From positions 96,001 through 160,000 of the forward strand of contig CAXXNO010000006.1 of assembly GCA_963663235.2 (NCBI GenBank): a DNA stretch of 64,000 nt, written 5' to 3'. Below are positions 1 through 14,046 of this stretch, in pieces. Numbering within the stretch: position 1 is the first letter of the stretch; each line of letters begins with the position of its first letter. The translations under genes were made by a program, and so were the position numbers. The notes under the pieces were generated by a model. It did no database searches and was not told where the DNA came from. It worked only from the letters and a program-made list of their open reading frames with translations. Origin of the DNA: Dehalococcoidia bacterium (GTDB lineage Bacteria; Chloroflexota; Dehalococcoidia; Bin125).

Positions 1-2
1 CG

Positions 3-542
3 GCTCGTCAGGAGCGCATAAGCGTGGAGACAACGGGCGACGACGCCCGGAGCAAGATTGAGGCCGAGGACGGGAAGCTTTACGGCGGCACCATCAAGGA
101 TCCCCGAGAACTCCGAAACCTGCAGGAGGAGATCTTCGCGCTGCGCCGGACGCTCAAGGCGCAGGAGGACGACCTGCTGACGCGTATCGAAGAGGAGGAG
201 GGGGCGGATGTGGCCGGAGCGCACGTGCAAGGGCTGGTGAAGGCTACGACCGTCGCCTGGGAGGCGGAGCAGCAGGAGTTAGAGAAGCGACGCGCGGAGC
301 TGACCACCGAGGCAGCGGGCGTCCAGGCTGAGATCAAGACGCACCGCGCCGAGATCCAGCCGGAGGGGCTCGCTGCCTATGACAGCCAGCGCCGCATCAT
401 GCCGGTCGCCATCGCGCGCGTGCAAGGAGGCGCATGCAGCGGCTGTCGGCTGACGCTGCCGATCTACGCCATCAACCGAGCGCGACGCGGGCAGGCTGCG
501 GTGCGGTGTCCGTCCTGCCAGCGGATCCTGTACGTGGCGTAG
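3..542 (+). CDS. Coiled-coil protein with C-terminal C4 zinc ribbon (DUF164/CT398-like), probably 5'-truncated by the window
   Basis: Long charged helix then CSGCRL...CPSCQRIL; frame is open to the window edge. Confidence 0.85.
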   Translation, partial: ARQERISVETTGDDARSKIEAEDGKLYGGTIKDPRELRNLQEEIFALRRTLKAQEDDLLTRIEEEEGADVAGAHVQGLVKATTVAWEAEQQELEKRRAELTTEAAGVQAEIKTHRAEIQPEGLAAYDSQRRIMPVAIARVQGGACSGCRLTLPIYAINRARRGQAAVRCPSCQRILYVA

Positions 543-549
543 AGTCACG

Positions 550-1965
550 ATGCACGCCGTCGGCTACTTCAGCGAGAGCCGCCCGAGCGAGCAGGCCTGC
601 TCGCTCTCCGACCAAAACGATGCCTTCCTGGACACTTGCAGGCAACAGGGCTATGAGCCTACGGCCTCCTTTCTCGATACCGCTCTCGACGGCGACCGCC
701 CCGGCTTTGAGCAACTCCTCAACTACCTCGGCCGGCCCGACCGCGGCTTCATCGTGGTGGTCGTTATGGCGTTCGCGCACTTGGGGGCGGCACAGATCGA
801 AGCGGCGCGCACGTACTACCAACTGATCGCGCGCGGCGCCAAAGTGGTCAGCATCAAGGAAGGGCCGCTGGATGAGGCGCGATTGCTGGAACTCTGGGCG
901 GCAGCGAGCCCCACGGACGCGATGCGGGAGCGGGTCCGCAATGCCATGCGCCGGCGCGCGGTATCCGGCCAGGTCCTGGGACGTCCCGCGTACGGCTATC
1001 GCGTGGGGCCGGACCGACGCCTGGAGTTGGTGGAAGAGGAAGCGGTGGTGGTGCGCCATATTTTCTCGCTGTACTTGCAGGAGGGGCTGGGAGTCCGGCG
1101 TATCGCCAAGCGACTCAACGAGGATGGCTTCCAGACCCGTCGCCGGGCCAACTGGAGCATGGTCACCATCCGCGACATCCTGCGCAATCGGGTGTACCTG
1201 GGCACCTACGCCCGCTTCGGCGTTCGAGTGCCCGGCAGTCACCCGGCGATCGTGAGCGAGGAGGATTTCCGCAAGGTCCAACAGGGGTTGGAACGCCGTC
1301 GCACGGTGGCGGCGCCCGCCACGCGCAGCAATTATCTCCTTTCGGGGCTGGCGCACTGCGATGCCTGCGGGAATCGAATGATCGGCGTTTCACGCCGCCA
1401 GCAATGGACCCGTGGCAACGGCGAGACCGTCAAGCAGACCTACCGCTATTACCAGTGCGAATCGAGAACGAATCAGTCGATGTGCGATTACCACACGCGT
1501 CGCGCCGACGAGCTGGAGGCGGAGGTGGTGGCGCACGTGACGGGGGCGGAGCCGGGCGCACGGCGGCCGTCGGTCATCAGCGCAGGCAACGCGGACGCCG
1601 TGGCGGCGGAGACGGCAACGGCGACGGCGCGCGTCCGTGGACGTCTGCGGCTTCTCGATCGACGCCTCTCCGAGCAACTCACGCGGGCGGCGGCCGGCCA
1701 GCTCTCGCGCGATCGGCTCCGCGCGATCGCCGACTCCCTGGTCGCCGAGCACCAGGATGCGGAGGAGGAGTTGCGCGGGCACCACGACCGGGCGTCGCTG
1801 CAGGTGTCGGCTATCGCCCGCCGCCAGCATCAAGAGCGGCAGGTGGAGCGCATCCGCGGCGAATGGTCTCGTCTCTCCTTTGCCGCGCGGCAGGCGATGG
1901 TGCGCGATCTCGTTGAGAAGGTCGTCGTCAGCGATGACGAGGTCACGACGGTGCTGCGCCCATGA
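550..1965 (+). CDS. Large serine recombinase-family protein (resolvase + recombinase + Zn ribbon + coiled coil) with degenerate catalytic motifs
   Basis: DRPGF, G-R-P-AYGY, ILRNRVYLG, HPAIVSEE, YLLSGLAHCDACG, YYQC; YxRxS reads YFSES and DRLxR reads AHLGA. Confidence 0.9.
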   Translation: MHAVGYFSESRPSEQACSLSDQNDAFLDTCRQQGYEPTASFLDTALDGDRPGFEQLLNYLGRPDRGFIVVVVMAFAHLGAAQIEAARTYYQLIARGAKVVSIKEGPLDEARLLELWAAASPTDAMRERVRNAMRRRAVSGQVLGRPAYGYRVGPDRRLELVEEEAVVVRHIFSLYLQEGLGVRRIAKRLNEDGFQTRRRANWSMVTIRDILRNRVYLGTYARFGVRVPGSHPAIVSEEDFRKVQQGLERRRTVAAPATRSNYLLSGLAHCDACGNRMIGVSRRQQWTRGNGETVKQTYRYYQCESRTNQSMCDYHTRRADELEAEVVAHVTGAEPGARRPSVISAGNADAVAAETATATARVRGRLRLLDRRLSEQLTRAAAGQLSRDRLRAIADSLVAEHQDAEEELRGHHDRASLQVSAIARRQHQERQVERIRGEWSRLSFAARQAMVRDLVEKVVVSDDEVTTVLRP

Positions 1966-1975
1966 CCGCCCTCTC

Positions 1976-2389
1976 GTGCGGCTAGTCGCTTACGCGGACG
2001 GCGCCTCGCGCGGCAACCCGGGGCCGGCCGCCTATGGTGGTGCTCTCTACAGCGAAGCGGGGGTGGAAGTGCGTGCCGTGGCGCGGGCGATCGGTCGCGG
2101 GACCAACAACGATGCGGAGTATCAGGCCGCCATCGCGGTGCTCGAAGCGGCGCTGGAGATGCAGGCCACGGAGGTCGAGTTGCGCTTGGACTCGGAGTTG
2201 GTGGTGCGGCAAATCACCGGGATCTACCGGGTCCGCAGCGAACGGTTGCGCGGCTACTACGATCGGGTCTTGGCGCTCATAGAGCAACTGGAGCGTTTCC
2301 ACGTGCATCACATCCCGCGCGAGCAGAACCGCCGCGCCGACGCACTGGCGAACGGGGCGCTGGATGGCCGGCCCGCGAGCGCACCGTAG
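1976..2389 (+). CDS. rnhA: Ribonuclease HI family protein
   Basis: YADGASRGNPG, TNNDAEY, LDSELVVRQ, HIPREQNRRADALAN; GTG start inferred. Confidence 0.9.
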   Translation: MRLVAYADGASRGNPGPAAYGGALYSEAGVEVRAVARAIGRGTNNDAEYQAAIAVLEAALEMQATEVELRLDSELVVRQITGIYRVRSERLRGYYDRVLALIEQLERFHVHHIPREQNRRADALANGALDGRPASAP

Positions 2390-2402
2390 CGGAGCCGTAG
2401 TA
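2325..2402 (+). repeat. 78-bp direct repeat, copy 1 (rnhA 3' end)
   Basis: Matches 3799-3876 with one mismatch. Confidence 0.95.
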
Positions 2403-2761
2403 CGCAGCATTCCATATCGATGAGAATCGACGGCTGACAGGCCGTGCTGTTTACATCTGGACACACTGGTAACTAGGGTTTCGTCTGTCGTCCAATGAAA
2501 GGGCGTGCCAACGACTCCGTTGGCAATTGGTTGGCAACGACGTGCCTACGTCCGCGCCGGCAACGCGTCTTACCGCCGCTGGCTTCTCCGACGCGCGTGA
2601 ATGATCGCCTCTGCCTTCGTCTCTGTGGGCAGCAATCCATCGGTGCTGCAGCGGGGCTCGCGGAGTTCGTCTTCGCTGGCGTCTCCTCGCTTCGGCATGG
2701 CCGACGCTACGGTATACTCGCGCTCCCTCAGTTCTGACAGAGTCCTCTGAAGGAGACTCTC

Positions 2762-3545
2762 ATGTCCGCCAGCGTATCTGACATCGAACTGCACGGCCCA
2801 GGCGGCGGCGCACGCCGGGGGAACAAGATCGAAGCCAAGGAGTTGTCGGCGACCTTCACGGTGACCGTGGATACCGATGGTTGCTACGCGATCTTCGTCT
2901 CCCTCTGGGAAGATGACGACAACTTGCTGTGGTTCTTGAATCCAGACGAGAAGGGCCTGGGATACGAGAAACGCAATCGAATGCCACTGCCTAACGGCGG
3001 GCGAGGCCCAGGAGTTCGAGATTGGGGCGACCGCGTCGGAGGACCCCGCCGAACCCCCGGCGCCGGACCCGGACTCCAGCGTCATCCCTCTGGCGCCGAT
3101 GAAGGGGAATTGGCCCAAGTCGGATGCGGGAGGGGAAATCGAGTTGCGCCTCGAAGTAGAGGTCAAGCTCTGCACGCCGAATTGTGGCAAGGAGTGTGAT
3201 GACTACAACTACTTTACGGATAGTTTCGGCGATCCAGTCGGCAAGGGAAGCTCGGAGCTGGTGGACATCCCTCTTCCCGGCGGCAAGGAGCCGCATGAAA
3301 TCATGAAAGAGGCCGTCAAGGCGGCTGCCCCATCGGTCATCGGCGAGTTGATGAAGTCTACCCGTTCGGAAGAAGCGACTGAGGCCGTGTCTGCAGATCT
3401 CGCGTGGAGAGAAGGCGTGTCGAAGCAATTGAGGGCCCTCCAGCGAAGCGTCCGGGCGACGGAGGAGCGCATGATCTCGGAGCGCGCGAGAGTGAAGCGC
3501 GCTCGCTCCGAACGTCGTAGGCGGAGGCCCCGTGAACGAAGCTAA
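2762..3545 (+). pseudogene. Hypothetical gene in the 1.4 kb insert, apparently frameshifted near 2965
   Basis: ORF 2762 has a GGAG SD; the acidic, Cys-containing sequence continues in the +1 frame (AIECHCLTAGEAQEFEIG...MKGNWPK) to the stop at 3545. Confidence 0.55.
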
Positions 3546-3798
3546 GTCCGACGAGAGAGCTGCGTAGCCCACGTCGGCCAGGACCAGCGTCTAGATCCGC
3601 GCTGACAATGTCCGCAGAGTCGTAGGCCGTGGGGTGTTGCGCTACGACGAGGGGAAGAGGAAAGGGGGGTCGGAGGCCGGCTGGGGGCGCTAGGGCTTCT
3701 GGCTTCGACGTGACGGGTGGCATGGGGCTCTCCACGCTGGACCCGTTGCTGGGCCGTGTGCAGGTGCGATTGGTGTGCATCCAGACGTGCCACCCTGT

Positions 3799-3876
3799 AG
3801 AACCGCCGCGCCGACGCCCTGGCGAACGGGGCGCTGGATGGCCGGCCCGCGAGCGCACCGTAGCGGAGCCGTAGTA
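3799..3876 (+). repeat. 78-bp direct repeat, copy 2 (stranded rnhA 3' end, directly upstream of rnpB)
   Basis: Matches 2325-2402 and runs into TAGGAT, a candidate -10 box of rnpB. Confidence 0.95.
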
Positions 3877-3886
3877 GGATCAAGAC

Positions 3887-4258
3887 GGGCCAGGTGGCCG
3901 GGTGGCTGCGGTCCTTCCGGCAGTGGAAGGGCTGAGGAAAGTCCGAGCTCCACCGAGACGGGGCGCTGGGTAACACCCAGGAGGGGCGACCCTACGGAAA
4001 GCGCCACAGAAACATACCGCCCTTCCCGAAGGGGAAGGGCAAGGGTGAAATGGTGCGGTAAGAGCGCACCAGCGGCCGGGCGACCGGCCGGCTGGGCAAG
4101 CCCCGCCCGGAGCAAGACCACGTAGGAGGGCTATGGGAGTCTCGGCCCGCCCTCGGGTAGGTCGCTTGAGGCGGCGGGTAACTGTCGTCCTAGATAGATG
4201 GCCACCCCCTGTCGCTACGGCGGCGGGGACAGAACTCGGCTTACAGGCCACCTGGCCC
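3887..4258 (+). ncRNA. rnpB: RNase P RNA
   Basis: GAGGAAAGTCC, GGAAAGCGCCACAGAAA, GGTAAGAGCGCACC, ACAGAACTCGGCTTA; ends GGGCCAGGTGGCC / GGCCACCTGGCCC pair as P1. Confidence 0.97.
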
Positions 4259-4280
4259 ACTTCTCTTTCAGGCGAAGGCC

Positions 4281-5822
4281 GTGCCTAGGGCTGCCGTGGG
4301 CCGTGCGTTGCCCGATTTGCTGAATGCGACGCGGGTGCTGGCGGTGCATGGGCGGCCGCCGGCCCAGCCCGCGTCCCAGCTGAGCCAGGACTCGCGCGAG
4401 ATTGCTCCGGGGGCCTGCTTCGTGGCGGTGCCCGGCTTCCACGTCGACGGGCACGCGTACCTGGAGGAGGCGCTGGCGGCGGGAGCGGCGGCGGTGGTGG
4501 TGCAGGCCGATCGCCGGGCGTTGTGGGAGCCGCTCCTCGCGCGACCGCAGATCACAGTGGTCGAGGTTCCCGATACCCGCGCGGCGCTGGCGGACCTGGC
4601 CGCGGCCTTCCATGGATTTCCCGCTCGCTCGCTCACCGTGGTCGGCGTCACGGGCACCGACGGCAAGAGCACCACCAGTTATCTCATCTCCTCGATTCTC
4701 GAGGCGGCCGGAGGCCGCACCGGAATGATTAGCGGCGTGCAGTTCAAGGTCGGTGGCGAGTGGCGGATGAACGACCTCACCCAGACCAGTCCAGAGGCAC
4801 CGCTGGTGCAGGCGCTCCTGGCAGAGATGGTCGAGGCTCGTGTGACGCATGCCATCATCGAGTCGACGTCGCACGGGCTGGCGCTCCACCGGCTGGACCA
4901 CTGCGAGTACGACGTTGCGGTGTTCACCGGTCTGAGCGACGACCATTTGGATTTCCACGAAACGCGTGAGGCGTATATCGCGGCCAAGGCGGGTCTCTTT
5001 GCCGCCCTCGATCAGGCGTGCGACAAGGGCGTGCCGAAGCGCGGCGTCGTCAATGCGGACGATCCCCATGCCGGCGCGATGCAGGCGGCCACCCGAGCGT
5101 CGCTCATTCGCGTTGCTCTTGACGCGCCGGCGGTGGATGTCACCGCCACCGATCTCATGGAGGGGGCGGACGGCACGGAGTTTCTCTTGGTGACCGACGT
5201 GGGAGACGCGCGTGTCGACCTGCCGCTGCCGGGTCGGTTCAACGTGCGCAACGCCCTCGCTGCCGCGGGCGCCGGCCGTGCGCTGGGTGTTGCCCCCGAG
5301 GTGATTGCGCGCGGCCTCTCGAGCGTCGGCGGCGTGCCGGGGCGGATGGAGCGGATCGACGGCGGGCAGCCCTTTACCGTCGTCGTCGATGCGGCCGCAA
5401 CGACTGACGCGTTCCGTGTCGTGCTCGGCTCGATCAAGCCGCTCGTGACCGGGCGCCTGATCGCGGTTTTCGGCTGTGCCGGCGAGCGCGATCCCGGCCG
5501 CCGGCCGGGGATGGGCCGCGCCGCGGCGGAATACGCCGATTACACGGTGATCACGAGCGAGAATCCGCGCTCGGAAGAGCCGGGCGCCATCGTGCGGGAG
5601 ATCGCCGTGGCGATGGAGGGCGCCGGGCGCCGGACAGGCGTCGATTTTGAGGAGGAGCCCGACCGCCGGTCGGCCATCGCGCGGGCTCTGGAGTTGGCCG
5701 AAGCGAACGATTACGTCCTGATCGCCGGCAAGGGCGCCGAGCAGTCGCTCATCGTGGGCGACAGCGTGCAGCCCTGGGACGACCGCACCGTCACGCGCGA
5801 GTTGCTCGCCCAGCGTGGGTGA
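4281..5822 (+). CDS. murE: UDP-MurNAc-dipeptide diamino acid ligase
   Basis: DSR, GVTGTDGKSTT, ESTSHGL, DHLDFH, VPGRME, FGCAGERD, ENPR, IAGKG; exact start uncertain. Confidence 0.9.
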   Translation: MPRAAVGRALPDLLNATRVLAVHGRPPAQPASQLSQDSREIAPGACFVAVPGFHVDGHAYLEEALAAGAAAVVVQADRRALWEPLLARPQITVVEVPDTRAALADLAAAFHGFPARSLTVVGVTGTDGKSTTSYLISSILEAAGGRTGMISGVQFKVGGEWRMNDLTQTSPEAPLVQALLAEMVEARVTHAIIESTSHGLALHRLDHCEYDVAVFTGLSDDHLDFHETREAYIAAKAGLFAALDQACDKGVPKRGVVNADDPHAGAMQAATRASLIRVALDAPAVDVTATDLMEGADGTEFLLVTDVGDARVDLPLPGRFNVRNALAAAGAGRALGVAPEVIARGLSSVGGVPGRMERIDGGQPFTVVVDAAATTDAFRVVLGSIKPLVTGRLIAVFGCAGERDPGRRPGMGRAAAEYADYTVITSENPRSEEPGAIVREIAVAMEGAGRRTGVDFEEEPDRRSAIARALELAEANDYVLIAGKGAEQSLIVGDSVQPWDDRTVTRELLAQRG

Positions 5823-5892
5823 GGCGGCACAGGCGGAGCGGCGCAGCGCGGGCGGATGCAGTACTCTCGCCCGAACGAAGAGAGGGAGGCGC

Positions 5893-7245
5893 ATGGACCG
5901 GGCTACCTACGAGGAATTGGTCGCGCTGGACACGGCGCATTGGGTGCATCCACTCAATCATCCGGCGTCGCAAACGCAGCCGATTCTGATCGAGAGCGGC
6001 GAGGGCATCTACCTCAATAGCGCCGACGGCAAGCGCTACATCGACGGGCTCTCCGGGCTGTGGAACGTTGGGGTGGGGCATGGCCGGACCGAGCTGGCGG
6101 AGGCGGCCGCCCAGCAGATGGGCAAGATCGGCTTTAACAGCAATTACGCCGGCTATTCCAACGAGCCGGCGATCCGCCTGGTCAAGCGGCTGGTCGATCT
6201 GACATACGACAACATGAGCGCGGTGTTCTTGGCCAACACCGGCTCCGACTGCAACGAGTCCAATTTCAAAGCGGCCCGGTTCTACTGGGAAGTGAAGGGC
6301 AAGCCAGGCAAGGACAAGATCATCAGCCGGGCCCAGGGATACCACGGGACCACAATGGCTGCGATGAGCGCGACTGGCATGAACGTCTACTGGGACATGT
6401 TCGAGCCGCGCGTCGCGGAGATCACCTCGGCGCAATGTGCCTTCCGCCCGGAATGTGCCATGTGCCGACTGGCCGGCGAGTGCAACGGGTGTCTGGACGC
6501 CATCGTGGAGGCGATCGAGCGGGCGGGACCGGACAGCGTGGCCGCGATCATTTCGGAGCCGGTGCAGGGCGCCGGCGGCGTCTACCCGCCGGAGGCGGAC
6601 TACTTTCCTCGACTGCGCGAGATCTGCGACCGCTACGAGATCTTGTTGATCGCGGACGAGGTCATCACCGGGTTCGGCCGCACGGGGAAATGGTTCGCGC
6701 TGGAGCACTGGGGTGTGCAGCCAGACATGATTTCGCTGTCCAAACAGATCACGAGCGGCTACGTGCCTCTGGGCGCCGCCGTCTGGTCCAGAGAGGTCCA
6801 CGAGACAATCGTCAGCAGCGATCCGAACCGCAAGTTCATGCACGCGTACACCACGAGCGGGCATCCCGTGACCGCCGCCGTCGCGCTGCGAAATCTGCAG
6901 ATCATCGAAGAGGAGAACCTGGTCCAGAACGCGGCCGAGCGCGGCGCGCAACTCCTCGCGGGCCTGCAATCGATGACGGAACTGCCGTACGTCGGGCACG
7001 CCCGCGGGTTGGGGCTGATGTGCGGCATCGAACTGCTGGAGGACCCGGAAGCTGAAACCCGGTTCGACCCGACGCGTGGCCTGGGCGCCAAATTGATAAA
7101 TGCCATGAAAACACGGGGCCTGATCACCCGCTTCCGCAACGACAACGTGGTGTTCGCCCCGCCCCTGATCATCACTGCCCAGCAGGTGGACGATATTCTG
7201 GCGATCGTGCGGGATAGCGTGAAAGAGGTAACAGCCGAGCTCTAG
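5893..7245 (+). CDS. Class III PLP aminotransferase (omega-transaminase type)
   Basis: YIDGLSGLW, GYHG, EPVQGAGG, LIADEVITGFGRTG, SKQITSGY. Confidence 0.9.
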   Translation: MDRATYEELVALDTAHWVHPLNHPASQTQPILIESGEGIYLNSADGKRYIDGLSGLWNVGVGHGRTELAEAAAQQMGKIGFNSNYAGYSNEPAIRLVKRLVDLTYDNMSAVFLANTGSDCNESNFKAARFYWEVKGKPGKDKIISRAQGYHGTTMAAMSATGMNVYWDMFEPRVAEITSAQCAFRPECAMCRLAGECNGCLDAIVEAIERAGPDSVAAIISEPVQGAGGVYPPEADYFPRLREICDRYEILLIADEVITGFGRTGKWFALEHWGVQPDMISLSKQITSGYVPLGAAVWSREVHETIVSSDPNRKFMHAYTTSGHPVTAAVALRNLQIIEEENLVQNAAERGAQLLAGLQSMTELPYVGHARGLGLMCGIELLEDPEAETRFDPTRGLGAKLINAMKTRGLITRFRNDNVVFAPPLIITAQQVDDILAIVRDSVKEVTAEL

Positions 7246-13972: not shown

Positions 13973-14046
13973 CCTCACCCCCTGGCCCCCTTCGACAAGC
14001 TCAGGACAGGCCCTCTCCATCGGCAAGCGATGGAGAGGGGGAAGAG
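13973..14046. repeat. REP-like palindromic element
   Basis: CCTCACCCCCTGGCCCC, CCTTCGACAAGCTCAGGACAGG, CCCTCTCCATC-GGCAAGC-GATGGAGAGGG. Confidence 0.85.

Follow-up and report, generated by a model that had tools for sequence, protein, structure and literature searches.

A large serine recombinase without its catalytic arginines, fixed in a housekeeping operon of Dehalococcoidia: a candidate non-catalytic DNA-binding protein

Within a 64,000-nt stretch of the genome of a Dehalococcoidia bacterium (GenBank assembly GCA_963663235.2, contig CAXXNO010000006.1, positions 96,001 to 160,000; hereafter the window), a gene resembling those of the large serine recombinases (LSRs) stands in a row of housekeeping genes and encodes a protein without catalytic arginines. 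This gene and its product, here called SR, occupy 550..1965 on the forward strand; the frame opens with the codons ATG CAC GCC GTC GGC TAC TTC AGC GAG AGC (M-H-A-V-G-Y-F-S-E-S), contains no internal stops, and closes with TGA at 1963-1965, giving 471 amino acids (aa). Directly upstream lies the 3' part of a CT398-like Zn-ribbon gene (ZnR; 1..542, forward strand), whose TAG stop at 540-542 leaves 7 nt to the ATG of SR, and directly downstream an RNase HI gene (RNH; 1976..2389, forward strand, 137 aa) starts with GTG at 1976, a gap of 10 nt after the SR stop. The last member of the conserved block is rnpB, the gene for a class A RNase P RNA (3890..4259, forward strand; Rfam RF00010, 298.6 bits), beyond which murE follows, and upstream of ZnR stand rpmF, fabD, tatC, a UDG-family gene, the RNase J gene, and ftsK. 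No phage genes were found around SR, and the window genome (2.75 Mb in 14 contigs) has one PF07508 gene.

The SR protein can be divided into four parts, all encoded on the forward strand: an N-terminal resolvase-fold domain, apparently no longer catalytic (aa 1-127, 550..930); the C-terminal half of helix E together with the recombinase domain, which has an isoelectric point of 11.5 (aa 128-255, 931..1314); a zinc-ribbon domain with C270, C273, C303, and C312 (aa 256-335, 1315..1554); and a coiled-coil hairpin inserted in the zinc-ribbon domain (aa 336-441, 1555..1872), modeled as helices 348-381 and 387-441. Pfam reports Recombinase PF07508 at aa 162-250, with the full profile covered (E = 1.8e-23), and Zn_ribbon_recom PF13408 at aa 263-330 (E = 5.7e-12), and all four zinc cysteines are present. 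Resolvase PF00239 is unreported for the whole protein; aa 1-167 alone match it at E = 1.1e-9 and 39 bits against a cut-off of 23.3, and this match begins at profile position 11, directly past the nucleophile.

An AlphaFold2 model computed with 118 homologues (mean pLDDT 82.9, pTM 0.52) shows an N-terminal alpha/beta domain, mostly with pLDDT >90, and is poorly defined over residues 124-130. The recombinase domain and a zinc ribbon rich in beta structure come next, and residues 348-441 form a long helical hairpin, which aligns, profile to profile, with the coiled-coil region of canonical LSRs. The best Foldseek matches of this model are the full-length SPbeta, Bxb1, PhiC31, and LI integrases (E = 2.4e-21 to 2.4e-15), the Listeria LI match being an integrase-DNA complex, and the matches also include 2r0q and Tn3 resolvase-site III complexes. 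The N-terminal domain matches gamma-delta resolvase (TMt 0.61) and the TP901-1 catalytic domain (rmsd 2.6, 111 columns). Aligned with hhalign against eight canonical LSRs, the SR family profile reaches a probability of 100% (E = 5.8e-56, 446 columns), and PHROG 95, 'integrase', matches SR at E = 2.9e-72. Judged by its modeled fold and by homology, the SR protein is a complete large serine recombinase.

The active site is where SR departs from this scaffold. In gamma-delta resolvase numbering, used here for R8, S10, D67, R68, and R71, the residues R8, R68, and R71 are essential in serine recombinases, and single changes at these positions abolish catalysis in resolvase mutagenesis. We compared SR with the Bxb1, A118, and phiC31 integrases and with five canonical LSR paralogues from relatives' genomes, which read YARVSS, YVRVSS, or YVRVST. 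By both MAFFT and profile-profile alignment, the integrase motifs IRLS, IRVS, and DRQS fall on Y6-F-S8-E-S10 of SR (565..579, forward strand), where YxRxS has degenerated, and VDRLTR and LDRLSR fall on A76-H77-L78-G79-A80 (775..789, forward strand) in place of DRLxR. Hence R8 is replaced by Ser, D67 by Ala, R68 by His, and R71 by Ala, and a Ser stands at the nucleophile position, S10. A first-pass annotation made from the sequence alone had read the two motifs as YFSES and AHLGA, exactly as these alignments place them; its description of an intact recombinase domain, zinc ribbon, and coiled coil without stops likewise agrees with the Pfam matches, the four cysteines, and the predicted hairpin, and its account of the gaps on either side of SR and of a neighborhood without phage genes was accurate.

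These substitutions recur among the relatives of SR. A word-indexed search in which 8000 candidates were scored gave 844 homologues at E ≤1e-3, and we analyzed the best 120 of these 844, SR itself included; 118 cover at least 96% of SR, and the other 119 are 48-65% identical to it. Column 8 holds Arg in 73, Ser in 35, and Thr in 10 of these sequences, and the nucleophile column 10, which adjoins an indel-rich stretch of the alignment and is among the most variable of the domain, holds Pro in 27, Ala in 17, Ser in 15, and other residues in the remainder. Columns 76, 77, and 80 are variable, L78 is kept in 107/120, G79 in 120/120, and R50 (the R45 equivalent) in 98/120; the combination of R8, S10, and R68 is found in 0/120. 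Deep-branching syntenic members read YFRVT, YFRDL, YFRAD, YFNLN, or FHIDN and have xHLx instead of DRLxR.

With phmmer, 1.84 billion cluster representatives were scanned exhaustively and gave 145 matches at E ≤1e-30, from which we tallied the 105 listed representatives of at least 400 aa (50% identity, E to ~3e-30), so that the SR family amounts to about 100 clusters at 50% identity. The R8/S10/R68/R71 set is missing from 99 of these 105 full-length representatives, and the six that have R8, S10, R68, and R71 are the lowest-scoring ones, at ≤139 bits. Ser occupies the nucleophile position in only 18/105, and the R68 position is most often taken by His (45/105). A conserved Ser nucleophile is not a feature of the SR family, though S10 is present in the window SR, and YxRVS is intact in the canonical LSR paralogues that relatives carry elsewhere in their genomes. 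Scores against NCBIfam equivalogs remain below their cut-offs: 71.8 against 375 for XisF, and 54.9 against 700, 58.6 against 900, and 69.4 against 900 for CcrA, CcrB, and CcrC. The same substitution pattern across the whole orthologous family is not a matter of chance, and the putative catalytic loss is, on these alignments, a family trait rather than a private lesion.

SR is a single-copy, vertically inherited gene at a fixed locus. Among same-family relatives, 24/24 genomes sampled have one strong orthologue (395-621 bits), with canonical paralogues at ≤87 bits, and in the class-wide sample the family of the window organism likewise scores 34/34. In a class-wide sample of 401 genomes, all at least 90% complete and including one unpublished genome (G583), matches at E ≤1e-30 were found in 231, nearly always in exactly one copy. 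The distribution is near all-or-none by taxonomic family: SR is found in 34/34 genomes of f1, 34/34 of f16, 22/23 of f6, 11/11 of f24, 7/7 of f31, and 7/7 of f101, in none of f14 (0/15), f95 (0/10), or f97 (0/11), and in part of the mixed families f104 (18/34) and f22 (5/10). In a phylum-wide sample, also of 401 genomes, the 14 with an SR match all belong to the class, and no SR was found outside it. The source names and ESM Atlas records of SR homologues likewise lead to Dehalococcoidia, Chloroflexota. A maximum-likelihood tree separates 18 syntenic genes from eight canonical LSRs, a small canonical sample, with support of 100/99, and within it f1, f27, f34, and f22 are each monophyletic.

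Two members deviate from this pattern. The homologue of f6 (L030, G029:C4, 1282-2541) has 419 aa and lacks approximately the first 50 N-terminal residues; it lies outside the ZnR operon, next to RNA methyltransferase-like and PIN-like genes, and keeps the invariant recombinase and zinc-ribbon motifs. In one 130-contig draft, the orthologue (G001:C11:16999-18453, L014) carries one in-frame TAG, which may reflect a sequencing error or local pseudogenization.

Selection on SR is purifying. Across 11 orthologue pairs, the ratio of nonsynonymous to synonymous substitution (dN/dS, Nei-Gojobori) is 0.074-0.297 for the whole gene, 0.093-0.326 for the N-terminal domain, and 0.066-0.307 for the zinc ribbon and coiled coil; in the recombinase domain, it is 0.016-0.407, with one outlier of 1.03 from a pair whose dS is merely 0.012. 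Identity to the window proteins in the same genomes is 47-61% for SR, 55-71% for FabD, 54-70% for MurE, and 28-57% for ZnR. SR thus falls in a range like that of FabD, MurE, and RNase H, above the CT398-like protein. Taken together, the dN/dS values and the housekeeping-like identity would exclude a decaying relic.

Conservation is concentrated in the parts of SR that would face DNA. Mean column conservation peaks at 0.85 in the C-terminal half of helix E, with 0.82 in the recombinase domain, 0.72 in the zinc ribbon, 0.62 in the N-terminal domain, 0.54 in the coiled coil, and 0.40 in the linker at 101-127. Across 118 sequences, over 50 residues never vary; Arg, Tyr, Gln, Asn, and Trp of the two C-terminal domains make up many of these, among which R282, Q284, W286, R288, Y298, Y300, Y301, and Q302 belong to the zinc-ribbon beta-hairpin. 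In phage integrases, DNA-reading surfaces vary with the att site. The frozen state of these surfaces across genera therefore points to one conserved ligand.

For the LI integrase bound to attP, the available part of the structural report gives DNA contacts in helix E (M136), helix H (Y207, N208), the linker between the recombinase and zinc domains (N259), the beta11-beta12 hairpin (D287, T288), and beta12 (Y295, Y297), and zinc ligands at C274, C277, C302, and C314 (PMC3783163); the numbering of the A118 integrase agrees with that paper. By hmmalign, these four cysteines correspond to C270, C273, C303, and C312 of SR, Y297 corresponds to the invariant Y298, the LI hairpin falls on the invariant R282-x-Q284-x-W286-x-R288, and helix H lies next to the invariant T196, R198, and W202. 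Adding A118 to the family alignment with mafft --add misaligned the zinc ribbon, placing Cys onto Tyr, and hmmalign was used instead.

The gene order around SR is conserved. Among 30 loci from other genomes, a CT398-like gene lies directly upstream of SR in 28 and an RNase H gene directly downstream in 22, and across 12 loci the distance from the ZnR stop to the SR start is -1 to 37 nt. In the family of the window organism, the order tatC-fabD-rpmF / ZnR-SR-RNH-rnpB-murE-aminotransferase is kept over 15 kb. Just downstream, rnpB is found in 10/12 long loci, and in L039, L046, and L047 it follows SR directly, without RNase H; no rnpB is nearby in L044 and L045. In relatives, the stop of RNase H or SR lies ~15-140 nt from rnpB, and these short distances suggest co-transcription, as far as sequence can tell. 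At one locus (L043, G039:C1, 6160-6517), rnpB adjoins RNase H on the strand opposite to the operon, so that co-transcription cannot be universal. Class genomes without SR have ZnR-RNH-rnpB (L052), ZnR-RNH (L053), or ZnR-rnpB (L051); since the ZnR-(RNH)-rnpB arrangement is kept there, SR looks like one ancient insertion into a pre-existing block. Upstream of ZnR, close relatives share a promoter-like TTGCGC and TATGCT separated by 17 nt, together with a ribosome-binding-site-like stretch. In the RNA run X20, which is of low depth, contigs were found on rnpB-like sequence and on a 1.4-kb insert next to it only, and none on operon genes.

The partner genes are themselves recognizable. The 5' end of ZnR lies ~157 nt outside the window, probably at a GTG (L036:9844, an alignment-based start), and the 232-aa product, which is CT398/CdsZ-like (COG1579), combines a coiled-coil hairpin with a C4 Zn ribbon (Pfam PF24481 and PF02591, covering Zn_ribbon_9 and the CT398-like coiled coil). 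Its profile matches CT398 (4ilo), MSMEG_4306 (5y05), and HP0958 (3na7) in the PDB over the full length, and it scores 26.3 against a cut-off of 275 for the NCBIfam CdsZ equivalog. RNH matches PF13456 and PF00075 and gives partial-score matches to NCBIfam RNase HI models. No PADLOC matches were obtained for SR, ZnR, or RNase H. A complex prediction for SR with the CT398-like protein (alignments A1 and A2), run without controls, returned a score of 0.00 in both of two runs, which speaks neither for nor against binding. In the available parts of the literature, both DNA and the beta subunit of RNA polymerase were recovered together with MSMEG_4306 (PMC7092591), beta' is the predicted binding partner of ML1638 (bioRxiv 10.64898/2026.07.15.738315), and a review that calls the mechanism of the COG1579 family 'mysterious' links this family to NIF3 and RNase H (COG0328) and to the binding of nucleic acids (PMC8469502).

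Between RNase H and rnpB, the window carries a 78-nt direct repeat (77/78 identical) at 2325-2402 and 3799-3876, which brackets a 1396-nt insert of lower GC content (2403-3798). The first copy takes in the final 65 nt of the RNase H gene and 13 nt beyond it, and the second ends 13 nt before rnpB and is contiguous with it as in relatives. The open reading frames of the insert have no Pfam, PHROG, or PADLOC match and no counterpart in relatives, and the insert is single-copy in the genome. Its contig depth relative to the flanks is 6.7 vs 14.8, 3 vs 13.6, and 6.3 vs 5.3 in the DNA runs X1, X2, and X3, respectively, and in view of this unevenness the insert looks polymorphic in populations. It resembles an att-type duplication left by a small integrated element, without an integrase inside. 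At the same junction of another genome of the family (L041, G007:C1, ~4750-6170), there is an inserted gene for a 378-aa RCC1-like-repeat protein with 111-nt periodic DNA repeats, and the RNase H-rnpB junction seems to be a recurrent insertion point.

Around SR itself, inverted-repeat and promoter/terminator scans of positions 1-4400 found no bracketing repeats, the only repeat pair being the downstream one around the 1.4-kb insert. Conserved non-coding DNA in a blastn comparison with 11 relatives is limited to a lineage-restricted promoter region and rnpB, and the 220 nt upstream of the operon at 12 loci show promoter- and ribosome-binding-site-like conservation only, within close relatives. 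A search for repeated 16-mers also brought up a REP-like palindromic hairpin family with the core CTCCATCG-N5-CGATGGAG and G/C-rich extensions, present in 36 often clustered copies in the genome, of which those in the window lie at 14015, 35594, 53182, 54572, and 54767; no link to SR was seen.

We interpret SR, with a probability of about 0.6, as an exapted large serine recombinase that no longer cuts DNA and works as a non-catalytic, sequence-specific DNA-binding protein. Such a protein would dimerize through its N-terminal domain and helix E, its recombinase and zinc-ribbon domains would read a pseudo-palindromic site of ~40-50 bp as integrases read att sites, and its role, exerted by binding DNA, would be architectural or regulatory rather than enzymatic. 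Since its DNA-reading residues do not vary between genera, the predicted site is probably the same conserved chromosomal sequence everywhere. SR would be made from one operon with the CT398-like protein, mostly together with RNase HI, and with RNase P RNA at the 3' end. Given this shared operon and the RNA polymerase association of mycobacterial CT398 homologues, a role in transcription of or around the locus is our preferred guess.

Much of this had been anticipated by the first-pass annotation, which proposed a domesticated, probably non-catalytic DNA-binding or synapsing protein possibly linked to RNase H. Domestication is borne out by the single copy at a fixed position, a tree that follows families, presence in 231/401 class genomes, and dN/dS of 0.07-0.30; the block is conserved under purifying selection, and in place of patchy neutral decay the distribution is near all-or-none by family. 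The presumed loss of catalysis now extends from one protein to its whole family. The DNA-binding part has gained from the finding that the regions corresponding to the LI contacts are the most conserved of the family, with binding itself still a prediction. The proposed link to RNase H proved the weakest part, as RNase H adjoins SR in 22/30 loci compared with 28/30 for the CT398-like gene, and rnpB follows in 10/12 long loci, sometimes right behind SR, which makes the CT398-like protein and rnpB, not RNase H, the tighter partners.

Several observations weigh against this interpretation. R8 and S10 are both kept in 14/120 of the best homologues, none of which adds an Arg at position 77, and a basic residue elsewhere in space may substitute for the lost arginines. 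Three of the four zinc cysteines (positions 273, 303, and 312) are replaced in 34/118 members, by Ser/Gly/Thr, Ser/Asn, and Gly, respectively, with neighboring residues invariant, so that the zinc-ribbon domain is not strictly constrained as a zinc site. Helix E is shortened at its start, where it also varies and is poorly modeled, and dimerization as in true recombinases is therefore not assured. The shortened f6 homologue outside the operon implies that the operon partnership is not obligatory, and no conserved candidate binding site emerged from the blastn comparison of the locus with 11 relatives.

Other readings of the locus were weighed against these data. SR could bind RNA instead of, or besides, DNA, with a basic and aromatic surface that recognizes RNase P RNA or its precursor and aids processing, folding, or stability. 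The position of rnpB at most long loci, in three of them right after SR, the gaps short enough for co-transcription, and invariant ligand-facing residues, as expected for a ligand that, like RNase P RNA, is conserved universally, all agree with this proposal. However, to our knowledge every characterized member of this fold binds double-stranded DNA, and the conserved elements of SR map onto the parts of LI integrase that bind DNA grooves; moreover, two loci (L044 and L045) have no rnpB nearby, f6 keeps the gene in another context, and the ZnR-rnpB linkage is older than SR, being present without it (L051, L052). We therefore regard an RNA-binding role as unlikely, even with the upstream CT398 family tied to nucleic-acid binding in the available parts of two reports (PMC8469502, PMC7092591). 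Alternatively, a dead integrase could guard the locus by occupying an attachment site on the rnpB side or by forming dead complexes with incoming integrases, thereby keeping related mobile elements out of an essential locus. Serine-recombinase elements of the class do target single-copy RNA genes, according to the available part of one study (PMC3146451), the junction of RNase H and rnpB is a hot spot for insertions (the repeat-flanked 1.4-kb insert of the window and the extra gene of G007), and canonical LSRs are present in several relatives. Yet the window genome has no canonical LSR, keeps SR nonetheless, and carries an insertion at that very junction; there are no PADLOC defence-family matches, and housekeeping-like conservation is unusual for conflict genes. 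A guardian or decoy of this kind seems improbable to us.

Retained activity has to be considered as well, since a Ser stands at the nucleophile position of the window SR, R8 and S10 co-occur in some homologues, R50 is widely kept, and the N-terminal domain is under purifying selection; S10, or Thr as in YFRVT, could then serve an unconventional site in which other basic residues replace R8, R68, and R71. Pseudoenzymes sometimes have migrated catalytic residues, as the available part of one source describes (PMC10211241). Nevertheless, the nucleophile column is highly variable and lies beside an indel-rich stretch, no homologue among the 120 joins R8 and S10 to R68, no att-like repeats or mobile-element genes flank SR, its position is fixed across the class, and the resolvase mutagenesis mentioned above leaves little room for the loss of even one arginine, which makes an active recombinase very improbable. 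A functionless relic of an integrated element, decaying with its frame still undisrupted, is hardly credible: the lost catalytic residues, the in-frame TAG of G001, and the N-terminally shortened f6 homologue would suit it, but frames are intact in the genomes examined, the gene persists in more than half of the sampled class genomes at low dN/dS, over 50 residues are invariant, and synteny is retained down to ~32% identity. Both an active enzyme and a relic are poorly compatible with the data.

As to where an exapted, DNA-binding SR came from, its ancestor was likely an integrase whose element had entered the chromosome between the CT398-like gene and rnpB. In Dehalococcoides, islands integrate at the single-copy RNA gene ssrA via a CcrB-like serine recombinase, according to the available part of the same study (PMC3146451). 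A more specific and speculative version, which we consider a doubtful but worthwhile conjecture, is that the integrase, frozen at its rnpB-proximal site, serves as a site-specific clamp on DNA or nascent RNA and, with the RNA-polymerase-bound CT398-like protein, controls operon transcription, R-loop handling, or 3'-end formation. Should this be true, SR would represent a new class of transcription factor built on a complete LSR scaffold, including the coiled-coil 'arm', in 231/401 genomes of the class.

Large serine integrases have been studied almost solely as enzymes and genome-editing tools. If our interpretation of SR holds, this is an ancient and widespread family that has kept the whole scaffold and given up catalysis, and it would add a further case of a mobile-element protein recruited as a cellular factor. 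The domestication of mobile-element proteins is well known in itself; its occurrence on the LSR scaffold and in this operon is not. No published description of a catalytically dead or host-fixed LSR was found in open-access text and preprints, in searches that were partly poorly targeted. The family would offer a ready-made, evolution-tested 'binding-only' integrase scaffold, as well as a handle on the function of CT398/COG1579 proteins and on the expression of rnpB from the end of a protein-coding operon. A practical consequence concerns annotation, where the current labels 'recombinase family protein' and 'site-specific DNA recombinase' give the false impression that these genomes carry a mobile element here.

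Compared with known systems, ZnR is by profile a full-length member of the CT398/CdsZ/HP0958 (FlgZ)/MSMEG_4306 family, and no report of a recombinase-like gene in an operon of this family was found in open-access text and preprints. SR has the same full domain order as the LSRs (Bxb1 gp35, phiC31 Int, A118/LI Int, SPbeta SprA, CcrB, XisF, and SpoIVCA). Unlike them, it has an unconserved active site, with R8, D67, R68, and R71 absent and the nucleophile unconserved across the family, and it lies off mobile elements without att-like flanks, as a single-copy, syntenic, vertically inherited gene whose DNA-reading residues are invariant across genera. Hin/Gin-type invertases and developmental excisases are likewise mobile-element recombinases kept by the host for regulation, but all of those still recombine DNA, and the recruited serine recombinases named in the available part of a 2022 review of prokaryotic mobile-element recruitment are catalytically active ones only (PMC8987985). 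By analogy, the closest mechanistic model for SR may be the non-catalytic roles of Tn3/gamma-delta resolvase, at res sites II/III and as the tnpA/tnpR repressor, and of the Sin complex (2r0q), in which a DNA-bound dimer has an architectural or repressor function and does not cut. Both Tn3 and gamma-delta resolvase repress their own promoters by binding res. Those proteins remain competent at another site and reside on transposons or plasmids, whereas SR is chromosomal and its catalytic capacity appears to be gone.

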